NCBI GenBank assembly: GCA_052326485.1
Contig: JBKQMS010000003.1
Span: forward strand, 15,695 to 79,694
Direction: 5' to 3'
From: Thermoplasmata archaeon
GTDB lineage: Archaea > Thermoplasmatota > Thermoplasmata > Lutacidiplasmatales > UBA184
Length of the DNA: 64,000 nucleotides
Shown: in pieces, positions 8,821 to 62,042 of the stretch
How the letters are laid out: each line of letters begins with the position of its first letter
Numbering within the stretch: the stretch's first letter is position 1
Notes under the pieces: model-generated
Database searches by the model: none
What the model was told of the DNA's origin: nothing
Seen by the model: only the letters and a program-made list of their open reading frames with translations
Translations under genes and position numbers: made by a program

Positions 8821-9888
8821 ATGGGGATTCCCCTCGCTTCCGAGTCTCGCCTCGCGTCCTTGAAGGGTCGGACGCCCACGATCGCCACGTTGTGTTCTCA
8901 CTCCTCGCTCCAGATCTTCCACGGGGCGCGCGCCCTCGGCTTCCCGACCCTGGGCATCTCGGTCGGACCTCCCCCCCGGTTCTATGACGCGTTCCCCCTC
9001 GCTCGGCCGGACCGGTTCCTCTCGGTCCCCCGCGCGAAGGACCTCCCTTCCGCCGCCGAGAGGCTCCGGGCCGAGGGGGCGATCGTGATCCCGCACGGCT
9101 CGTTCGTGGAGTACGTCGGGGCCGAAACGTTCGCCGAACTCGACGTTCCGACCTTCGGGAACCGGGCCGTCCTCGGCTGGGAGTCCGACCGGGAGAAGGA
9201 GCGCGAGTGGCTCGACTCGGCCGGCGTCCCGATGCCGCGACGCTACGACGACCCGTCCGAGGTCGACGGTCCGGTGATCGTGAAGTACTACGGCGCGAAG
9301 GGCGGCAAAGGGTTCTTCCTCGCGAAGAACCGCGAGGCGCTCGCGGAGTTCAAACCGACCGGCCCGCACGTGATCCAGGAGTACGTGCTCGGGACCCGGT
9401 ACTACATGCATTTCTTCTACTCCCCGCTCTCCGACCGCGGCTATCGCGTGGGTCACGGCTCCCTCGAGCTCCTCGGGATGGACCGTCGGGACGAGGCGAA
9501 CATCGACGAGCTGTACAAGCTGGGGGCCGAGGAGGAGCTTCTGAAGGCGGGGATCCGCCCGACGTTCGTCGTCACGGGGAACGTGCCGGTCATTCTCCGA
9601 GAGTCGCTCTTGCCGAAGGCGTTCGAGGTCGCCGCCCGGATCGTCGAGCGTTCGATCGAGCTGTTCGGCGGAATGGTCGGCCCGTTCTGCGTCGAGGGGA
9701 TCATGACCGAAGGACTCGAGTTCAAGGTCTTCGAGGTCTCGACGCGGATCGTCGCTGGGACCAACCTGTTCATCTCGGGCAGCCCGTACTCGGATTTCAT
9801 CGAGCCCGGTCTCTCGACGGGAAAGCGCATCGCCCAAGAGATCGAGCGAGGCCGGTCGGAGCACCGCCTAGCCGAGATCCTGAGCTGA
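8821..9888 (+). CDS. purP: 5-formaminoimidazole-4-carboxamide ribonucleotide (FAICAR) synthetase PurP
   Basis: IATLCSHSSLQIFHGARALGF, PHGSFVEY, ATP-grasp VIVKYYGAKGGKGFF and GPFCVEG motifs as in archaeal PurP. The upstream part of the 518-aa track ORF overlaps the nuclease gene and is rejected. Confidence 0.85.
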   Translation: MGIPLASESRLASLKGRTPTIATLCSHSSLQIFHGARALGFPTLGISVGPPPRFYDAFPLARPDRFLSVPRAKDLPSAAERLRAEGAIVIPHGSFVEYVGAETFAELDVPTFGNRAVLGWESDREKEREWLDSAGVPMPRRYDDPSEVDGPVIVKYYGAKGGKGFFLAKNREALAEFKPTGPHVIQEYVLGTRYYMHFFYSPLSDRGYRVGHGSLELLGMDRRDEANIDELYKLGAEEELLKAGIRPTFVVTGNVPVILRESLLPKAFEVAARIVERSIELFGGMVGPFCVEGIMTEGLEFKVFEVSTRIVAGTNLFISGSPYSDFIEPGLSTGKRIAQEIERGRSEHRLAEILS

Positions 9889-11707: not shown

Positions 11708-11974
11708 ATGTACCGGCCAAATGGTGGAGCCGCGATGCTTTCTTTCGCGGACAGTCGCGTCTTCGAACTGCCCGATGAACGCCTCTCTCGGTGTCTCTTT
11801 TGCGGGAAGGAGCTCGTGATCCTTCCGGACGACCGGCGCGGAGGCGCGTGCTTCGACTGCCTCGCGCTCTCCCTGCGTCCCCCCGCGCCCTGCCCGAGCT
11901 GCGGGATCCTGATCCCCGGCGAGGAGCGCGGCGTGGGCTGTGCGAACTGCCGGTGGTACCCTCTCCGCGACTAG
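11708..11974 (+). CDS. small double zinc-ribbon protein (four CxxC pairs), function unknown
   Basis: CLFC...CFDC...CPSC...CANC spaced as two zinc ribbons in 88 aa. Confidence 0.5.
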   Translation: MYRPNGGAAMLSFADSRVFELPDERLSRCLFCGKELVILPDDRRGGACFDCLALSLRPPAPCPSCGILIPGEERGVGCANCRWYPLRD

Positions 11975-12034
11975 CGTCGTCCCCCGCGTCTCCGCTAAGC
12001 TTATCGGTCGATTCCCGTCCGTCACCCAGGGCGT

Positions 12035-12152
12035 GCCGAGGTGGCTCAGTCCGGTACGGCGCGAGTCTGGAAAGCTCGTGGCGGAATACGCCTCGGGAGT
12101 TCAAACGCCGAGGACGGCCAACCCGTCGCGGCGGAGATTCTCCCCCTCGGCG
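12035..12152 (+). tRNA. tRNA-Ser (anticodon GGA) with a ~33-nt intron in the T-loop
   Basis: Acceptor GCCGAGG (12035-41) pairs with CCTCGGC (12145-51), followed by G73. Anticodon arm is CGAGT-CTGGAAA-GCTCG. Long variable arm GGCG-GAATA-CGCC. T-stem GGGAG (12095-99) pairs with CTCCC (12140-44) only after removing 12106-12138. Confidence 0.75.
12106..12138 (+). other. putative non-canonical tRNA intron (T-loop, position 59/60 or 60/61)
   Basis: Separates TTCAAA from T-CTCCC. Internal helices CGCCG (12106-10)/CGGCG (12129-33) and GACGG (12113-17)/CCGTC (12123-27). Ends in GGCGGAGAT. Confidence 0.65.
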
Positions 12153-12198
12153 CTCCCCGCTCGGCCCGGGATCCCATGAGGCGGGGTTCTCTCCCGCC

Positions 12199-12690
12199 AT
12201 GACGGTCCCGGACCGAGCCCGGGCCCCGGCACTCCTGCAGGTCGATGCGATCCTGTCCCGCCTAGCTGGCCGCCAGGCCCTGGCGGAGGTCTGCCGGTTC
12301 CTTCGACACTCGTTCCCCCACTACCCTTGGGTCGGGGTCTATCGGCTCGAAGGGACCGACCTCGTCCTCGACGCATGGGAAGGGCCTCAAGCGACCGAGC
12401 ACACGCGGATTCCCCTCGACCGCGGGGTCTGCGGTCAGGCGGCCCGCGAAGGTCGCACGGTCATCGTCGACGACGTTCGGTCCGACCCGAACTACCTCGC
12501 CTGCTTCCTCGAGACCCGAGCCGAGATCGTGGTCCCCGTCCGTCACGAAGGGCGCGTGGTCGGCGAGATCGACATCGACGGGAACGCGGTCAGGGCCTTT
12601 GACGAGTCCGACCGCCGGTTCCTCGAGGACGTCGCGGCGAAGCTCGGGTCCGCGGTCGAGCGATCGGGCGCCGAGCTGCCGCACGCGTGA
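12199..12690 (+). CDS. GAF domain protein (free methionine-R-sulfoxide reductase-like)
   Basis: YPWVGVYRL...GVCGQAAREGRTVIVDDV...YLACF...EIVVPV...GEIDIDG pattern of single-GAF fRMsr-like proteins. The upstream part of the 299-aa track ORF covers the tRNA and is rejected. Confidence 0.8.
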   Translation: MTVPDRARAPALLQVDAILSRLAGRQALAEVCRFLRHSFPHYPWVGVYRLEGTDLVLDAWEGPQATEHTRIPLDRGVCGQAAREGRTVIVDDVRSDPNYLACFLETRAEIVVPVRHEGRVVGEIDIDGNAVRAFDESDRRFLEDVAAKLGSAVERSGAELPHA

Positions 12691-17118: not shown

Positions 17119-18516
17119 GTGCCCGAGAGCGAGCCCCCGTCCCCGAACCCGTGGGAGGCGGTCGTCTCTGTCCGAGGGGACGCCGCGCTCGAGAAGGAGC
17201 TCACGAGCCGACTCGAGCTGGAAACCGGCCTGAGGTCCATCGGGGTCACCGCCCTCATCTCGCTGCGCCGGGCCTTCTATCGGGCGTTCGCGCCCGCCGT
17301 TCCCATCCCTCCCGCCCGCCAGGTCCGCCTCGACCAGGGCCGCGCCCTCCATCGGACGCTGGGGACCCGCCTCGCTCGCGAAGGGGTCCTCGAGGCGCGG
17401 GTCCGACGGGACGGGCTCGTCGGACGGATCGATATCCTGGCCGAGCTCCCGATTGAGGTGAAGACCGCGACCGCGCTCATCGACCCATCGGACCTCCCGG
17501 GCTACCGACCCGACCACATCGAGCAGCTCGGCATGTACTGCGCGCTCGTCGACCGGCCCGCCGGCCGACTCCTCACCTTGGTCGCGAGCCCGGACGGCGT
17601 CTCCGAGGTACAGGCCGTGGATGTTACGTTCCGATCGACCGCTCGGATCCTCTCCGAGATGCGGCGCAGGGCCGACCTGCTCCGGGCAGCCTGGGGCGAG
17701 GCCCGCGTCGACCCGCTTCCGAGGTGTCCGTGGTACGGTCGGGGTTGCGAGTTCGAGGAAGCCTCGGTGTGCGCGTGCACGGGCGGGGAGCAGCCCGTCC
17801 CCCACCCTATCCCCGAGGAGGTCGAGACGATCTCCGCGAGGGACGACGTCCGGGACCGGGTCCGCGCCGCGCTTTCCGAGCCGATCCCGACCGAGGAGAC
17901 CTCACCAGTGGGGCGGTTTCGGGAACTGCTCTACCCTCGGCGTGCCTACTTCGACCGGACCGCTCCCGTCGCGGCCCCGACCGAGGCCCCGACGACAGTT
18001 CCTCCTCGAGAGGTTTCGCCCCCCTCCCCGAAACCGGACCTCTACGCGCGGTTGAGCGAGGCGCTGGAGTGCGGGCCTGCCGGGGAGGTCGCGCGGCTAC
18101 CGGCCCGGTCGGCCGAGCCCGAGGAGGAGGTGGTCGGGTTCCGGGGCCGTCCGTTGTTGATGAGGACATCCCGCGTGTGGGGGCGCTTCCGAGAGGATGA
18201 GGTCGTCCGGCGAGCTCCCCAGTACGCTCTCGAGCTCGGGTTGCGGTGCGCCACCACGGGGACGGACTCCGGGGTCGTCGTGGTCGGGTTCGAGCGGGCC
18301 AAGGCCGACCGCGACCGGCTCCAGGTCCTCGAGCTCCGTTTCGCCTCGCTCACCCCGTTCTCTCGGTTCTACCGGGAGCGCAGCCGCAGCCTCGCGGGCG
18401 CGGTCCGCGACCGGGCGCCGGCGGGCCTGCCGGCGTGCCCGGACTGGATGACGTCGGATTGCCCCTACCGGTCGGAGTGCGGCTGCGGGGGGTCCGAGGT
18501 CCGCGTGACGCGGTAG
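17119..18516 (+). CDS. hypothetical protein with a PD-(D/E)XK nuclease-like N-terminal half and a degenerate duplicated C-terminal half, each ending in a Cys cluster
   Basis: First half has GRIDIL..IEVKT, QLGMYC and CPWYGRGCEFEEASVCAC. Second half has GFRGRPLLMRTSR, QYALELGL and CPDWMTSDCPYRSECGC. Confidence 0.6.
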   Translation: MPESEPPSPNPWEAVVSVRGDAALEKELTSRLELETGLRSIGVTALISLRRAFYRAFAPAVPIPPARQVRLDQGRALHRTLGTRLAREGVLEARVRRDGLVGRIDILAELPIEVKTATALIDPSDLPGYRPDHIEQLGMYCALVDRPAGRLLTLVASPDGVSEVQAVDVTFRSTARILSEMRRRADLLRAAWGEARVDPLPRCPWYGRGCEFEEASVCACTGGEQPVPHPIPEEVETISARDDVRDRVRAALSEPIPTEETSPVGRFRELLYPRRAYFDRTAPVAAPTEAPTTVPPREVSPPSPKPDLYARLSEALECGPAGEVARLPARSAEPEEEVVGFRGRPLLMRTSRVWGRFREDEVVRRAPQYALELGLRCATTGTDSGVVVVGFERAKADRDRLQVLELRFASLTPFSRFYRERSRSLAGAVRDRAPAGLPACPDWMTSDCPYRSECGCGGSEVRVTR

Positions 18517-19430
18517 ATCGTGGACCTCACCGTCGGCTCGAGATGGAACTCGTGGTACAGCCGGCGGGCGGGATCGTTGGCGGCCGTCACCCAGAGGTGG
18601 ACGCGCTCGTAGCCGAGCGCCCAGAGCGCCCTCAATCCCCACCGGAATAGGTAGCGGCCGTAGCCCTTCCGACGGAACTCGGGGTCGACCATGAAGTTCA
18701 CGAAGATCCCCTTACGCGGGGAGCGCTCGGCCGAGAGGATGGCCCCGACGAGACGCGGGGGGTCGGGTTGGTAGAGCGCGGTCGACGCCTCGTCCAGGAA
18801 CCGACCGAGGCTGCCGCCGATCAGCGCCTCGGTCACCCGGCGGTACTCCTCGACCCGGTCGCCGATCAACTGAGCGTCGAGCGTCCCGCGGACGGACCGG
18901 AAGTCGAGGTCGGCGAGTGCGTCGACTGTCACGGCGCGTATCGGGACGAGCGAGAGATGGTCCGGCACCGGACCGGGGGGTCGCCCGTCGTCGATGGTGA
19001 GGGAGCGCTCCATCGCCATGCGCTCGAGGACGGTCGCCCCCGGGCGCCCGGCGAGCCGGCCCAAGAGCTCCTCCTCGTGCGCGGGGGAGAGGCCCGTGAA
19101 CCCGATGTTGATCGACCGGACCTCTGGCGGCAACTGCTCGAGGAGTGCCCCCGCGAGGCGTTCGCCCCGGTCGACCGCGTCGGTCTCCTCGGCCACGTGG
19201 ACGTGGCCGTAGGCCTCCTCTCCGCTCACGGAGTAGAAGGAAACGCCTGCTCCCGGCGCGACGGGATAGTACCAACCCGGGGTCCGTCCCGAGCGGAGCT
19301 CCTCGGCCGTCCGCTCGACCCAGTCCCCCGCCGGCGACTCGTCTCGCGCGAGCAGCGCCTTGCGGACCTGCTGGACGATCTCGACGAGGTCGTCGAGGCG
19401 AGCTCCGGTCGCTTTGAGAGGCTCGTCCAC
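18465..19430 (-). CDS. GNAT family N-acetyltransferase (possibly tandem GNAT)
   Basis: C-terminal acetyl-CoA motif FRRKGYGRYLFRWGL...ARRLYHEFH. N-terminal ~150 aa are unassigned. Confidence 0.7.
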   Translation of the reverse strand: MDEPLKATGARLDDLVEIVQQVRKALLARDESPAGDWVERTAEELRSGRTPGWYYPVAPGAGVSFYSVSGEEAYGHVHVAEETDAVDRGERLAGALLEQLPPEVRSINIGFTGLSPAHEEELLGRLAGRPGATVLERMAMERSLTIDDGRPPGPVPDHLSLVPIRAVTVDALADLDFRSVRGTLDAQLIGDRVEEYRRVTEALIGGSLGRFLDEASTALYQPDPPRLVGAILSAERSPRKGIFVNFMVDPEFRRKGYGRYLFRWGLRALWALGYERVHLWVTAANDPARRLYHEFHLEPTVRSTIYRVTRTSDPPQPHSDR

Positions 19431-59856: not shown

Positions 59857-60357
59857 ATGGAACGGTCGGGACGCGATCGCGGCGACCGCGAACATCCGCC
59901 GGTCGGACCTCCCCGTCTGTGGACGGTGGCGGAGGCGAACTCCCGGCTTCCCGAGCTCGAGGAGCTCCTTCCGCGGTTGCGTGGGTGGGTCGGTCGGCTC
60001 GCGGAGGTCCAGGAGGAGCGGGAGCGCCTCTCCGAGTTCTGGGGTTCCGAGGCCGACGCCGTAGACCAGCCCGACCATGAGCTCAAGGCCCGATTGGACG
60101 CCGAGCTGAAGCACCTGAGCCACCGCCTCGAGGAGGCCGTCGGGGCCCTTCGAGCAGAGGGGATCGAGGTGAAGGAGCTCGGGACCGGCCTCGTCGACTT
60201 CTACGCCATGGAAGATGGCGAGCTTGTGTTCCTTTGCTGGCAGCGGGGCGAGCACGGGGTCGGCTTCTACCACTCCCTGACCGGCGGCTTCCGCACCCGC
60301 CGACCGATCTCCGGCCCGGGCCGGGCCGCGTCGCCCCGGGCCCCGGGTCCCTTCTAG
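59857..60357 (+). CDS. DUF2203 family protein
   Basis: LWTVAEANSRLPELEELL...GIEVKELGTGLVDFYAMEDGELVFLCWQRGEHGVGFYHSLTGGFRTRRPI matches the DUF2203 consensus as I recall it. Confidence 0.7.
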   Translation: MERSGRDRGDREHPPVGPPRLWTVAEANSRLPELEELLPRLRGWVGRLAEVQEERERLSEFWGSEADAVDQPDHELKARLDAELKHLSHRLEEAVGALRAEGIEVKELGTGLVDFYAMEDGELVFLCWQRGEHGVGFYHSLTGGFRTRRPISGPGRAASPRAPGPF

Positions 60358-61280
60358 GACGTCCGGGATTCCGGGCCCACCTGGAAGATCTCGACGGTCC
60401 GGGTCGTTGCCGCGAACGCTCCCAATCCCCCGAGGACCGCCATGCCCGCGGTGACCACGGGAAAGAGTCCCCCGAGCGCGAGGAAGTAGAGCGCGGCCGG
60501 GGCGAGGACCCCGGCGGCGCCTCCGACCACGCCGACCGCGGGCCGGTCGCTGCGTCGGGTCACGACGGCCGCGACGCCTCCGAGCACCGCGACGATCCCG
60601 AGCAGGACGGCCCCGCTCCCGATCGAGGCGAGGAAGCTCTCGAGGTTAGGGAACGGGGAGAGCGACGTGGTGGTCCCGTTGCTCGGATTCCCCGGGACGA
60701 GCGTGACGGAAAGTCCGGTGGTCCCCGCGTTGTAGACCGTCGATGCGAAGGTGGTCAGTGTGGCGGAGGCGTAGCCCGACATGGTGACGTTCAACGAGAT
60801 GCCGCCGACCGGCACGTCCGAGAACAGGAACCCTCCGTTCGCACCCGTATGTTGCACGAACTCCTGGCCGCCGTCGGTGGTCAGGACCACGGTCGCCCCG
60901 GAGGCGGGAGCGCCTCCTCCGTCCGAACCGTCTTCGACGACGGTTCCCGAGACGGTGTAGCTCCCGGGGCCAAGGGCCTGGTCTCCGAGGACGACGAGCA
61001 CCCCGGCGAGCGCGACCGCGACCGCCGCAACACCGACCAGCGCGACCTGGGCCATGCGTCGCAACGATACCCGCGGGCGGCGGGTGGGGGGGAGCGCGGG
61101 GTAAAGCCCCGGGATGACCTCCCAGGTGTAGAGCGGAGGCGGGTCCCGCGGCACGACCACGGGCACCGGGTTATGGCACTGGGGGCACGGGAACCACTGG
61201 GTCGAAGGAGCAGGGGCGAGGACCACCCGAAGGTCCGCCCCGCACACCGGGCAACGGACCGAGACCGCCGGGACTCCCAT
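60354..61280 (-). CDS. hypothetical membrane protein: N-terminal zinc ribbon, TM, carboxypeptidase-regulatory-like beta domain, C-terminal multi-TM
   Basis: CPVCG...CPQC; then a TM; then YTVSGTVVEDGSDGGGAPASGATVVLTTDGGQEFVQHTGANGGFLFSDVPVGGISLNVTMSGY; then 3-4 G/A/V-rich TMs. Confidence 0.6.
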   Translation of the reverse strand: MGVPAVSVRCPVCGADLRVVLAPAPSTQWFPCPQCHNPVPVVVPRDPPPLYTWEVIPGLYPALPPTRRPRVSLRRMAQVALVGVAAVAVALAGVLVVLGDQALGPGSYTVSGTVVEDGSDGGGAPASGATVVLTTDGGQEFVQHTGANGGFLFSDVPVGGISLNVTMSGYASATLTTFASTVYNAGTTGLSVTLVPGNPSNGTTTSLSPFPNLESFLASIGSGAVLLGIVAVLGGVAAVVTRRSDRPAVGVVGGAAGVLAPAALYFLALGGLFPVVTAGMAVLGGLGAFAATTRTVEIFQVGPESRTS

Positions 61281-61316
61281 CGACGTCGACGCCCGACCTC
61301 ATCGGGGGTCTTAGCG

Positions 61317-61910
61317 TTGAGGCGCTCCCTCGGGAAACCGCATCCGCGGGTGGTCGGGGTCGACGACGGAGCGTTCGCGCGCGGGGACCGGTACGCGCCG
61401 GTCGCGGCCGTGATCCTGACGATTCCCGAGCATGTGGAAGCGGTACGCACCGGCCGCGTCCGGGTCGACGGGACCGACGGGACGAGACGGGTCATCGCGC
61501 TCGTCCGTCGCCTCGGGCCTCTCGAAGGAGTCCGCGCCGTTCTGGTGGACGGAGCGGTCGTGGGAGGGTTCAACGTGCTCGACCTGGACGCGCTCCACGA
61601 GCGGCTCGGTGTGCCGGTCGTCGCGGTCACGCGACGACCCCCTGAGTTCTCCCGGATCCGAGCGGCGTTGCGGAAATGGTTCCCTCGTTCGGCCGACGCC
61701 CGCTGGTCCCTCCTGCGCGCGCACCGACTGTTCCGGGTCCCCACGGGTGGCCAACCGATCCTCGCCGCCGCGGTCGGGTGCTCCCGAGCGGACGCCGCCC
61801 TCCTCGTCCGACGGTCCACCGTTCGGGGGCACTGGCCGGAGCCGCTCCGCCTCGCCCATCTCGTCGCGTCCGCCGGCCGCCGACAGGGTGGCCGTCCACC
61901 CAAGGATTAA
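61317..61910 (+). CDS. DUF99 (UPF0215, endonuclease V-like fold) protein
   Basis: VVGVDDGAF...VDGTDGT...VLVDGAVVGGFNVLDL pattern. Start is uncertain (TTG 61317 or GTG 61350). The first 361 aa of the track ORF are antisense junk. Confidence 0.7.
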   Translation: MRRSLGKPHPRVVGVDDGAFARGDRYAPVAAVILTIPEHVEAVRTGRVRVDGTDGTRRVIALVRRLGPLEGVRAVLVDGAVVGGFNVLDLDALHERLGVPVVAVTRRPPEFSRIRAALRKWFPRSADARWSLLRAHRLFRVPTGGQPILAAAVGCSRADAALLVRRSTVRGHWPEPLRLAHLVASAGRRQGGRPPKD

Positions 61911-61935
61911 GGAGGGCGGAAGCCGTCGGGCTCCC

Positions 61936-62042
61936 GGGCCTGTAGCTTAGCATGGACAAAGTCCTGGCCTTCTAAGCCAGTGAACTCGGGTTCAAAGGTC
62001 CCGGACGCCGGCCGCCCGGGGCGGAGACTCCCGACAGGCCCG
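61936..62042 (+). tRNA. tRNA-Arg (anticodon UCU) with a ~32-nt intron in the T-loop
   Basis: Acceptor GGGCCTG (61936-42) pairs with CAGGCCC (62035-41), followed by G73. D-arm GCTT/AAGT. Anticodon arm CTGGC-CTTCTAA-GCCAG. 5-nt variable loop. T-stem TCGGG (61986-90) pairs with CCCGA (62030-34) only after removing 61997-62028. Confidence 0.75.
61997..62028 (+). other. putative non-canonical tRNA intron (T-loop, position 59/60 or 60/61)
   Basis: Separates TTCAAA from T-CCCGA. Very GC-rich. Contains GGACG (62003-07) and ends in GGCGGAGAC, like the tRNA-Ser insert. Confidence 0.65.

Follow-up and report, generated by a model that had tools for sequence, protein, structure and literature searches.

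In the literature, tRNA introns outside the canonical 37/38 site are treated as a hallmark of the Crenarchaeota/TACK archaea, the Nanoarchaeota and a few DPANN lineages with broad-specificity endonucleases, and the proliferation of such introns has been tied to those enzymes in a model of co-evolution between tRNA genes and the splicing endonuclease EndA. The closest described cases are found in ARMAN-2, where pre-tRNA-Cys(GCA) carries a 13-nucleotide (nt) intron between T-loop nucleotides 59 and 60 in a relaxed helix-bulge-helix (hBH) motif which is cleaved in vitro by archaeal EndA, and pre-tRNA-Pro(GGG) carries a strict motif at the same site (PMC3239211). The main sites of insertion in Crenarchaeota that have (αβ)2 enzymes overlap with 59/60 too (PMC3239211), and T-loop intron locations are mentioned in a review (PMC6379350). 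Here we describe a tRNA-Ser(GGA) gene with a 33-nt insert at this site in a 64,000-nt stretch of contig JBKQMS010000003.1 (the window) from a Thermoplasmata archaeon of the order Lutacidiplasmatales. The gene is very probably functional and expressed, with a transcript that carries the insert as an archaeal-type intron.

Like the 59/60 introns of ARMAN-2 and the Crenarchaeota/Thermoproteales, the insert is short, occupies the same T-loop site and would use the T-stem as the exon helix of a bulge-helix-bulge-type motif; its exons rebuild a normal tRNA, and default tRNA finders miss the gene. Unlike them, it belongs to a mesophilic soil order of the Thermoplasmata with a G+C content of about 70%, it is kept in all sampled relatives, it has a central helix with an A57•G apposition, and it is stereotyped, measuring 33 nt in tRNA-Ser and, in two further genes described below, 30-32 nt (tRNA-Arg) and 28-34 nt (tRNA-Ala), and always ending GGRRAN (R, purine; N, any nucleotide). 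With the canonical 37/38 intron, whose motif is the strict helix-bulge-helix-bulge-helix (hBHBh', 3-4-3), it shares, in the preferred register, an identical geometry on a 5-bp stem and a 7-nt loop. Of the exon nucleotides, four from the loop enter the central helix, two more form the 5' bulge together with one intron nucleotide, and a single one stands in the 3' bulge. One endonuclease and ligase pathway presumably handles both introns. The differences from the 37/38 intron are that the T-arm is used rather than the anticodon arm and that the fourth position of the central helix is A•G and not a standard pair. The class of mechanism is therefore known from these systems, and what is new is the host, the conservation in all relatives, the fact that every tRNA gene seen is affected, and the stereotyped form. 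No report of non-canonical tRNA introns in Thermoplasmatota was found in full-text literature searches, though such a report may have been published, and the archaeal mode of tRNAscan-SE 2 may already be annotating these genes without comment.

The window has a G+C content of about 70% and archaeal gene content, including SecY with a Sec61 plug domain, TFIIB, PurP and an archaeal phosphopantothenate synthetase. Its PurP protein (8821-9888) is 79-95% identical to genes of 80 soil and peat metagenome-assembled genomes labelled 'Thermoplasmata archaeon', among them UBA184, UBA61, AcS1-36 and AcS1-45. UBA184 and genomes of the same study represent the order Lutacidiplasmatales (formerly the Terrestrial Miscellaneous Euryarchaeotal Group, TMEG), with about 69% G+C and a size of about 2.1 Mb; the paper describing the order makes no mention of introns (PMC9287336).

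Structure and conservation of the tRNA-Ser(GGA) gene

The coordinates of the gene and of the other features discussed are collected in Table 1. The 5' exon contains the acceptor 5' strand GCCGAGG (12035-12041), a 3-bp D-arm, the anticodon arm with CTGGAAA, the long variable arm GGCG-GAATA-CGCC, the T-stem strand GGGAG and the T-loop nucleotides UUCAAA (end 12105), and the 3' exon ends without an encoded CCA. With its long variable arm, anticodon GGA, 3-bp D-stem and G73 the rebuilt molecule is a class II tRNA-Ser. A preliminary description, made from the letters alone, had listed the acceptor, anticodon loop, variable arm, T-stem, insert and 3' partners, and all of these were present where it had placed them; the insert's own hairpin (CGCCG/CGGCG and GACGG/CCGTC), which it had also pointed out, was recovered as the minimum-free-energy fold. 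Within the insert, position 1 is assigned to the 5' bulge. Two helices follow, 2-5 with 24-27 and 7/8-12 with 18-22/23, the second closed by a 5-nt loop. On its 3' side G28 stands opposite A57, G29, R30 and R31 pair with C56, U55 and U54, and A32 and N33 are assigned to the 3' bulge.

Table 1. Coordinates of the interrupted tRNA genes and associated features (window coordinates unless a relative's locus is named).
Feature	Position	Strand	Basis and remarks
tRNA-Ser(GGA), interrupted	12035-12152	+	118-nt locus; insert 12106-12138 between T-loop nucleotides 59 and 60
5' exon of tRNA-Ser(GGA), nucleotides 1-59	12035..12105	+	sequence and ARAGORN on spliced form
Predicted intron of tRNA-Ser(GGA), 33 nt, CGCCGAGGACGGCCAACCCGTCGCGGCGGAGAT, at 59/60	12106..12138	+	deletion restores tRNA; hairpin is the minimum-free-energy fold
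3' exon of tRNA-Ser(GGA): U60, CTCCC, CCTCGGC, discriminator G73	12139..12152	+	sequence and ARAGORN on spliced form
Promoter-like box CCGCTAAGCTTATCG (BRE/TATA-like)	11992..12006	+	29-43 nt upstream of tRNA-Ser 5' end; conserved in 70 loci
163-amino-acid GAF-domain gene, neighbour of tRNA-Ser	12199..12690	+	Pfam GAF; gene call in identical contig L001
5' exon of tRNA-Arg(TCT), nucleotides 1-59, ending UUCAAA	61936..61996	+	sequence, ARAGORN, orthologs
Predicted intron of tRNA-Arg(TCT), 32 nt, at 59/60 (…GGCGGAGAC, then U60)	61997..62028	+	deletion gives perfect tRNA-Arg(tct); architecture of the Ser intron
3' exon of tRNA-Arg(TCT): U60, CCCGA, CAGGCCC, G73	62029..62042	+	spliced form and orthologs
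tRNA-Ala(GGC), 34-nt insert at 59/60	L168 ~18808-18928, same in L169	-	relatives, ~8 kb past window 3' end
tRNA-Ala(GGC), 28-nt insert at 59/60	L171 ~17345-17459, same in L172	-	relatives, ~8 kb past window 3' end

The claim that the gene folds only after the 33 nt have been removed was borne out. Run on the raw sequence, ARAGORN called no tRNA, whether its option for anticodon-loop introns was on or off; when 12106-12138 was deleted it returned a perfect class II tRNA-Ser(gga). The raw locus scored 22.8 bits against the Rfam tRNA model RF00005, under the gathering score of 29, as expected for an interrupted T-loop, and the alignment was a wrong one which skipped the T-arm; a search limited to the 5' exon gave the identical 22.8-bit false alignment. 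The segment CCTCGGGA (12091-12098), at the junction of variable arm and T-stem, could pair almost completely with the acceptor 5' strand GCCGAGG, and covariance models therefore give a false T-arm-less alignment at 12035-12098. The expectation that default annotation would miss the gene thus held for both programs. As default finders miss or mis-call such genes, genomes of this widespread soil and peat lineage would be expected to look short of essential tRNAs, with spurious open reading frames called in their place.

For comparison we used 70 syntenic loci covering the tRNA-Ser position, with 63 distinct tRNA-Ser sequences among the orthologs. The gene was found in the same place, downstream of an ABC-2 permease, and with a 33-nt insert at the same site in all 70. 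An insert length of 33 nt was recorded at 71 of 71 loci. In mean pairwise comparison of the 70 loci the exons differed by 2.4%, the insert by 26%, and the flanks, taken as 30 nt to each side, by 46-57%. Only nine of the 85 exon columns varied among the 63 distinct sequences (76 invariant), and all stems were intact in each of them, the changes that fell within helices preserving the pairs (U32:G40 to C:G, G46:C58 to G:U). In the 3' exon all 14 columns were invariant over the 70 orthologs, while the sequence just downstream differed by about 57% on average.

In the insert, by comparison, 28 of the 33 columns varied. A structure model comprising the cloverleaf, the junction helix and the insert hairpin gave 96.3% standard pairs versus 44-56% when the partners were slid by 1-3 columns. 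Pairing in the insert helices stood at 85-88%, and at five pairs both partners had changed (73:98, 74:97, 75:96, 79:93 and 80:92); pair 80:92, for example, was A:U in 42 sequences, G:C in seven and C:G in four. At the junction, the pairs of U54, U55 and C56 with intron positions 31, 30 and 29 were formed in 100% of sequences, with positions 30 and 31 (columns 101 and 102) switching freely between A and G and never a pyrimidine, and columns 100 (G) and 103 (A, intron A32) invariant. U60 (column 105) was invariant and intron position 1 was C in 53 sequences, G in eight, A in one and U in one. The exons are thus under strong purifying selection, and the intron drifts yet keeps its structure. RNAalifold applied to the 70-sequence alignment gave an energy-driven misfold, a consequence of the invariant exons, and was uninformative.

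The upstream region is likewise constrained. Over the 70 upstream regions, which are otherwise about 80% G+C and 46% divergent, the AT fraction reached 0.9-1.0 at positions -39/-38 and -34 to -32, within the box CCGCTAAGCTTATCG, and the leader GGGCGT at -6 to -1 (12029-12034) was conserved as well. By its position and conservation the box would be the promoter, as expected for the B recognition element (BRE) and TATA box of Archaea. Of the 284 serine codons in ten genes of the window, 100 (35%) are UCC or UCU, so that a tRNA-Ser(GGA) isoacceptor is needed.

Junction motif and competing explanations

Three findings underlie the interpretation of the insert as an intron: the flanking exons form a canonical tRNA, the exons and the position and length of the insert are conserved throughout the order, and the intron helices covary. 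That EndA cleaves the precursor and a ligase joins the exons is inferred from the known pathway, and the exact register of the motif is likewise an inference. In the precursor, the G-R-R near the intron 3' end would pair with C56-U55-U54 of the T-loop, with G(n-5), which is G28 in the 33-nt intron, opposite A57. The T-stem would form the exon helix, followed by a 3' bulge of A32, N33 and U60, a central helix of four positions (U54·R31, U55-R30, C56-G29 and A57•G28), a 5' bulge of A58, A59 and N1, and the intron hairpin, whose helix would start with position 2 paired to 27. The result would be a bulge-helix-bulge on the T-arm placed exactly like that of the canonical 37/38 intron on the anticodon arm. 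In the canonical motif each bulge is cut between its second and third nucleotide. The tRNA splicing endonuclease would accordingly be expected to cut at A59|N1 and N33|U60, and an RNA ligase to join the exons into an 85-nt class II tRNA-Ser with a normal UUCAAAU T-loop.

The bulge-helix-bulge is defined by two 3-nt bulges with 4 bp between them (PMC5829648, PMC6379350). A 3-4-3 layout could be drawn in every Ser, Arg and Ala sequence, with three conserved standard pairs and an A57•G/A apposition; the fourth position is always A opposite G, except for A opposite A in two sequences. Several points weigh against the model. Instead of a bulge-helix-bulge, RNAfold opened the junction into an internal loop, 6x6 in Ser and 7x7 in Arg. 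The central helix has only three standard pairs besides the A•G apposition, and intron C1 could pair with G28 in 53 of the 63 Ser sequences, turning the motif into a 3-3-3 form whose cut sites would be asymmetric. Finally, the EndA of the lineage was not found, a tblastn search of the window and the lineage loci with the enzyme of Methanocaldococcus jannaschii giving no match. The junction motif is best described as a near-strict or relaxed bulge-helix-bulge, not a textbook-strict one.

A different junction or register, either a cut at 60/61 or a 3-3-3 motif with C1:G28 paired and A57-A59 bulged, appears very unlikely. The preliminary description had left 59/60 and 60/61 side by side, and removal of 12107-12139 does also yield a 7-nt T-loop (UUCAAAC). 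With that cut, however, position 60 would be G in eight orthologs, A in one and U in one, and the invariant U of column 105 would be intronic; since U60 is as invariant as the exons and intron position 1 is variable, and since only 59/60 gives the 4+2|1 bulge-helix-bulge geometry on the T-stem, the intron stands and 59/60 is preferred. Junctions at 56/57, 57/58 and 58/59 each leave a 7-nt loop as well, but give no bulge-helix-bulge with the T-stem as exon helix. The 3-3-3 register draws on the C1:G28 pair, which the minimum-free-energy fold does form. The 3-4-3 register is nevertheless preferred because N1 cannot pair with G(n-5) in the window tRNA-Arg, in three of the four distinct Arg orthologs or in both Ala introns (all G opposite G), nor with G28 in nine of the ten Ser sequences in which position 1 is not C; only a U1, met in one Arg and one Ser sequence, could form a wobble pair. 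Symmetric cut sites four positions apart are obtained only with 59/60.

The remaining explanations deny that the insert is removed, or that the gene works at all. In the canonical tRNA structure T-loop nucleotides 59 and 60 face outward, and the insert forms a stable, conserved hairpin, so a mature tRNA with an extra hairpin protruding from the T-loop can be envisaged. We nonetheless judge it very unlikely. The 3' end of the insert is held to G-R-R, complementary to C56-U55-U54, a constraint that makes sense only if the T-loop is sequestered in a precursor structure, one that would preclude the T-loop/D-loop contacts which a working tRNA makes. Three unrelated tRNAs also share this architecture, and inserts at 59/60 are proven introns in ARMAN-2 (PMC3239211). 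That the locus is a decayed pseudogene disrupted by a random insertion would account for the missing ARAGORN call and the low Rfam score, but it is highly improbable and effectively refuted by the conservation data: the exons have scarcely changed beside flanks that differ by about 50%, the length and position of the insert are fixed in 70 of 70 loci, compensatory changes have accumulated in its helices, and the promoter-like box is kept. No other tRNA-Ser(GGA) was seen to serve the 35% of serine codons that need this isoacceptor. The same features, taken together, exclude for practical purposes an assembly or binning artefact, that is, a chimeric join or a collapsed repeat inside the tRNA gene. 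Although the window does derive from a metagenome assembly, 70 genomes from many projects, each assembled independently and some represented by long-read contigs of 0.7-2.3 Mb, show the structure, as do two Logan assemblies from separate runs; this independent recurrence refutes an artefact.

Other interrupted tRNA genes and the splicing endonuclease

The only other tRNA gene of the window, tRNA-Arg(TCT) at 61936-62042 (+), was overlooked in the preliminary description and is likewise interrupted at 59/60. An ARAGORN call at 61935-62013 and an Rfam call at 61943-62004 (30.5 bits) were rejected as truncated or misfolded partial versions of this gene. Orthologs were fetched by way of the adjacent Endo_dU gene. 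The 5' exon was identical in loci L167, L168 and L173, and L171 had eight exon substitutions, of which the one changed helix pair (U30:A44 to C:G in the anticodon stem) was compensated and the others lay in loops. Four further distinct versions of the gene all carried the insert at the same place, with 32 nt or, in L171, 30 nt. The structure model was 99.4% paired, and a compensatory G:C to A:U change was seen in an intron helix. An AT-rich box, AAGGATTAAGG, lies upstream of the gene at 61902-61912 and is conserved in the orthologs.

A third interrupted gene, tRNA-Ala(GGC), was found in relatives past the 3' end of the window (Table 1). It has the identity pair G3·U70 and A73, its inserts end GGAGAA or GGAAAC, and removal of the insert gave a canonical tRNA in ARAGORN. 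The layout UUCAAA|N1, helix, G-G-R-R-A-N|U60 is common to the Ser, Arg and Ala introns, and as the same arrangement is present in tRNA-Arg(TCT) and tRNA-Ala(GGC) it is a trait of the lineage and not a one-off. As in the intron proliferation of the Thermoproteales, the lineage has a non-canonical interruption in several different tRNA genes, here in all three genuine ones that were seen. Unlike in that group, the single site met was 59/60, and no multiple-intron, split or permuted tRNA genes were seen in the lineage loci.

The lineage loci, about 1.4 Mb that cover largely two regions repeated across different genomes, yielded no uninterrupted tRNA. A delete-and-rescan screen of about 1.3 Mb on both strands returned, besides Ser and Arg, only three unconserved intron-free calls, so that the restoration of tRNA-Ser by deletion exceeds what chance would give. 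The Arg-CCG calls in L015 (rescan) and L016 (standard ARAGORN) and a Gln call in L051 (standard ARAGORN) were rejected, since they resemble coding sequence and did not recur elsewhere. One-off rescan calls were also noted in L069 (Arg-ACG) and L080 (Arg-TCG). The same scans of unrelated archaeal contigs, taken from the EndA search described below, gave about 16 ordinary or canonically interrupted tRNA calls and one candidate 59/60 insert. This candidate lies in L098 (contig Ga0315286_10000002, 59% G+C), which holds an EndA gene fragment and a tRNA-Asn(GTT) on the minus strand (~508-592 in plus-strand coordinates). The tRNA, called by ARAGORN as an 85-nt molecule, may hold a 33-nt insert at 59/60 (ACAGG-TTCGAG|TTCCCG…GGGAG|C-CCTGT).

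A wider proposal would be that most or all tRNA genes of the Lutacidiplasmatales/UBA184 carry stereotyped introns of about 30 nt at 59/60, that this expansion arose independently of those in the Thermoproteales and ARMAN-2, and that it is serviced by an ordinary narrow α'2 enzyme or an unrecognised EndA variant. Taken as a whole this is tentative, and we would sooner expect some part of it to fail than all of it to hold.

The statement in the preliminary description that such introns call for a broad-specificity endonuclease is in line with published views. In the literature α4 and α'2 EndA are counted as narrow in specificity, and (αβ)2, ε2 and loop-bearing EndA as broad. The characterised enzyme of the Thermoplasmata, the α'2 EndA of Thermoplasma acidophilum (PDB 2OHC), is listed among the narrow-specificity forms (PMC6379350). 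Since the motif described here is near a regular 3-4-3 bulge-helix-bulge, a standard endonuclease could still serve it; its high regularity and constrained length would suit an enzyme that is rather strict in what it accepts.

A profile search for EndA returned mostly Methanococcales, ε2-like and Archaeoglobi enzymes, and scanning metagenomes with a GC-biased DNA motif brought up 74 EndA genes. Among these was a high-G+C clade of α'2 type (P0121-P0183; L157, L158 and L160-L165), with two-repeat proteins of 335-355 amino acids encoded on soil Thermoplasmatota contigs of 68-75% G+C. In the sequences inspected (e.g., L086) the catalytic Tyr and His are only about seven residues apart, with no insertion. 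Most loci of the clade have EndA in a PurS-PurL-PurQ … EndA … Pup-ligase (PF03136) arrangement, complete or with one part only; in archaeal contigs it is unusual for a Pup-ligase homolog to adjoin EndA. The clade could not be tied to the lineage and is not assigned to it: there was no accession match, no tRNA in its gene neighbourhoods and no gene in common with the lineage loci, and the clade was absent from the 1.8 Mb Endo_dU contigs of the lineage (one of them also with PurP) and from its 2.3 Mb PurP contig. It is treated here as belonging to another lineage.

Conserved T-loop introns in a mesophilic order of the Thermoplasmata extend the known distribution of this intron type and offer a clean test of the co-evolution of EndA architecture and intron position. 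If a narrow α'2 enzyme does service these introns, this would contradict the current rule that links enzyme type to intron type, and the significance of the finding would rise if the endonuclease of the lineage proved to be a plain α'2 form or if most tRNA genes of the order were found to carry the intron. More speculatively, as mobile elements often integrate into the 3' part of tRNA genes, the lineage could be a natural case of introns protecting tRNA genes from integration.

Overlapping reading frames and minor matches

The two open reading frames that had been called spurious, 11791..12690 and 11940..12179, both exist, but for the first the label applies only to an N-terminal extension. 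Its Pfam GAF match is confined to residues 162-290, and the gene call in the identical contig L001 begins at the ATG equivalent to 12199, so that 12199-12690 is a real gene and the upstream 136 codons, which run across the tRNA-Ser gene, are spurious.

A Guanidine-II riboswitch match at 12106-12176 (+), overlapping the intron and the 3' trailer, reached 16.1 bits where the gathering score is 32; it is attributed to chance, G+C-rich hairpins that contain GGACG being the explanation. Weak Rfam matches to miRNA and sR40 families in the region were far under threshold and are likewise explained by G+C-rich hairpins. Near the tRNA-Arg gene, only the last ~190 codons of the open reading frame 60234-61910, which encode the Endo_dU/DUF99 domain, represent a real gene.

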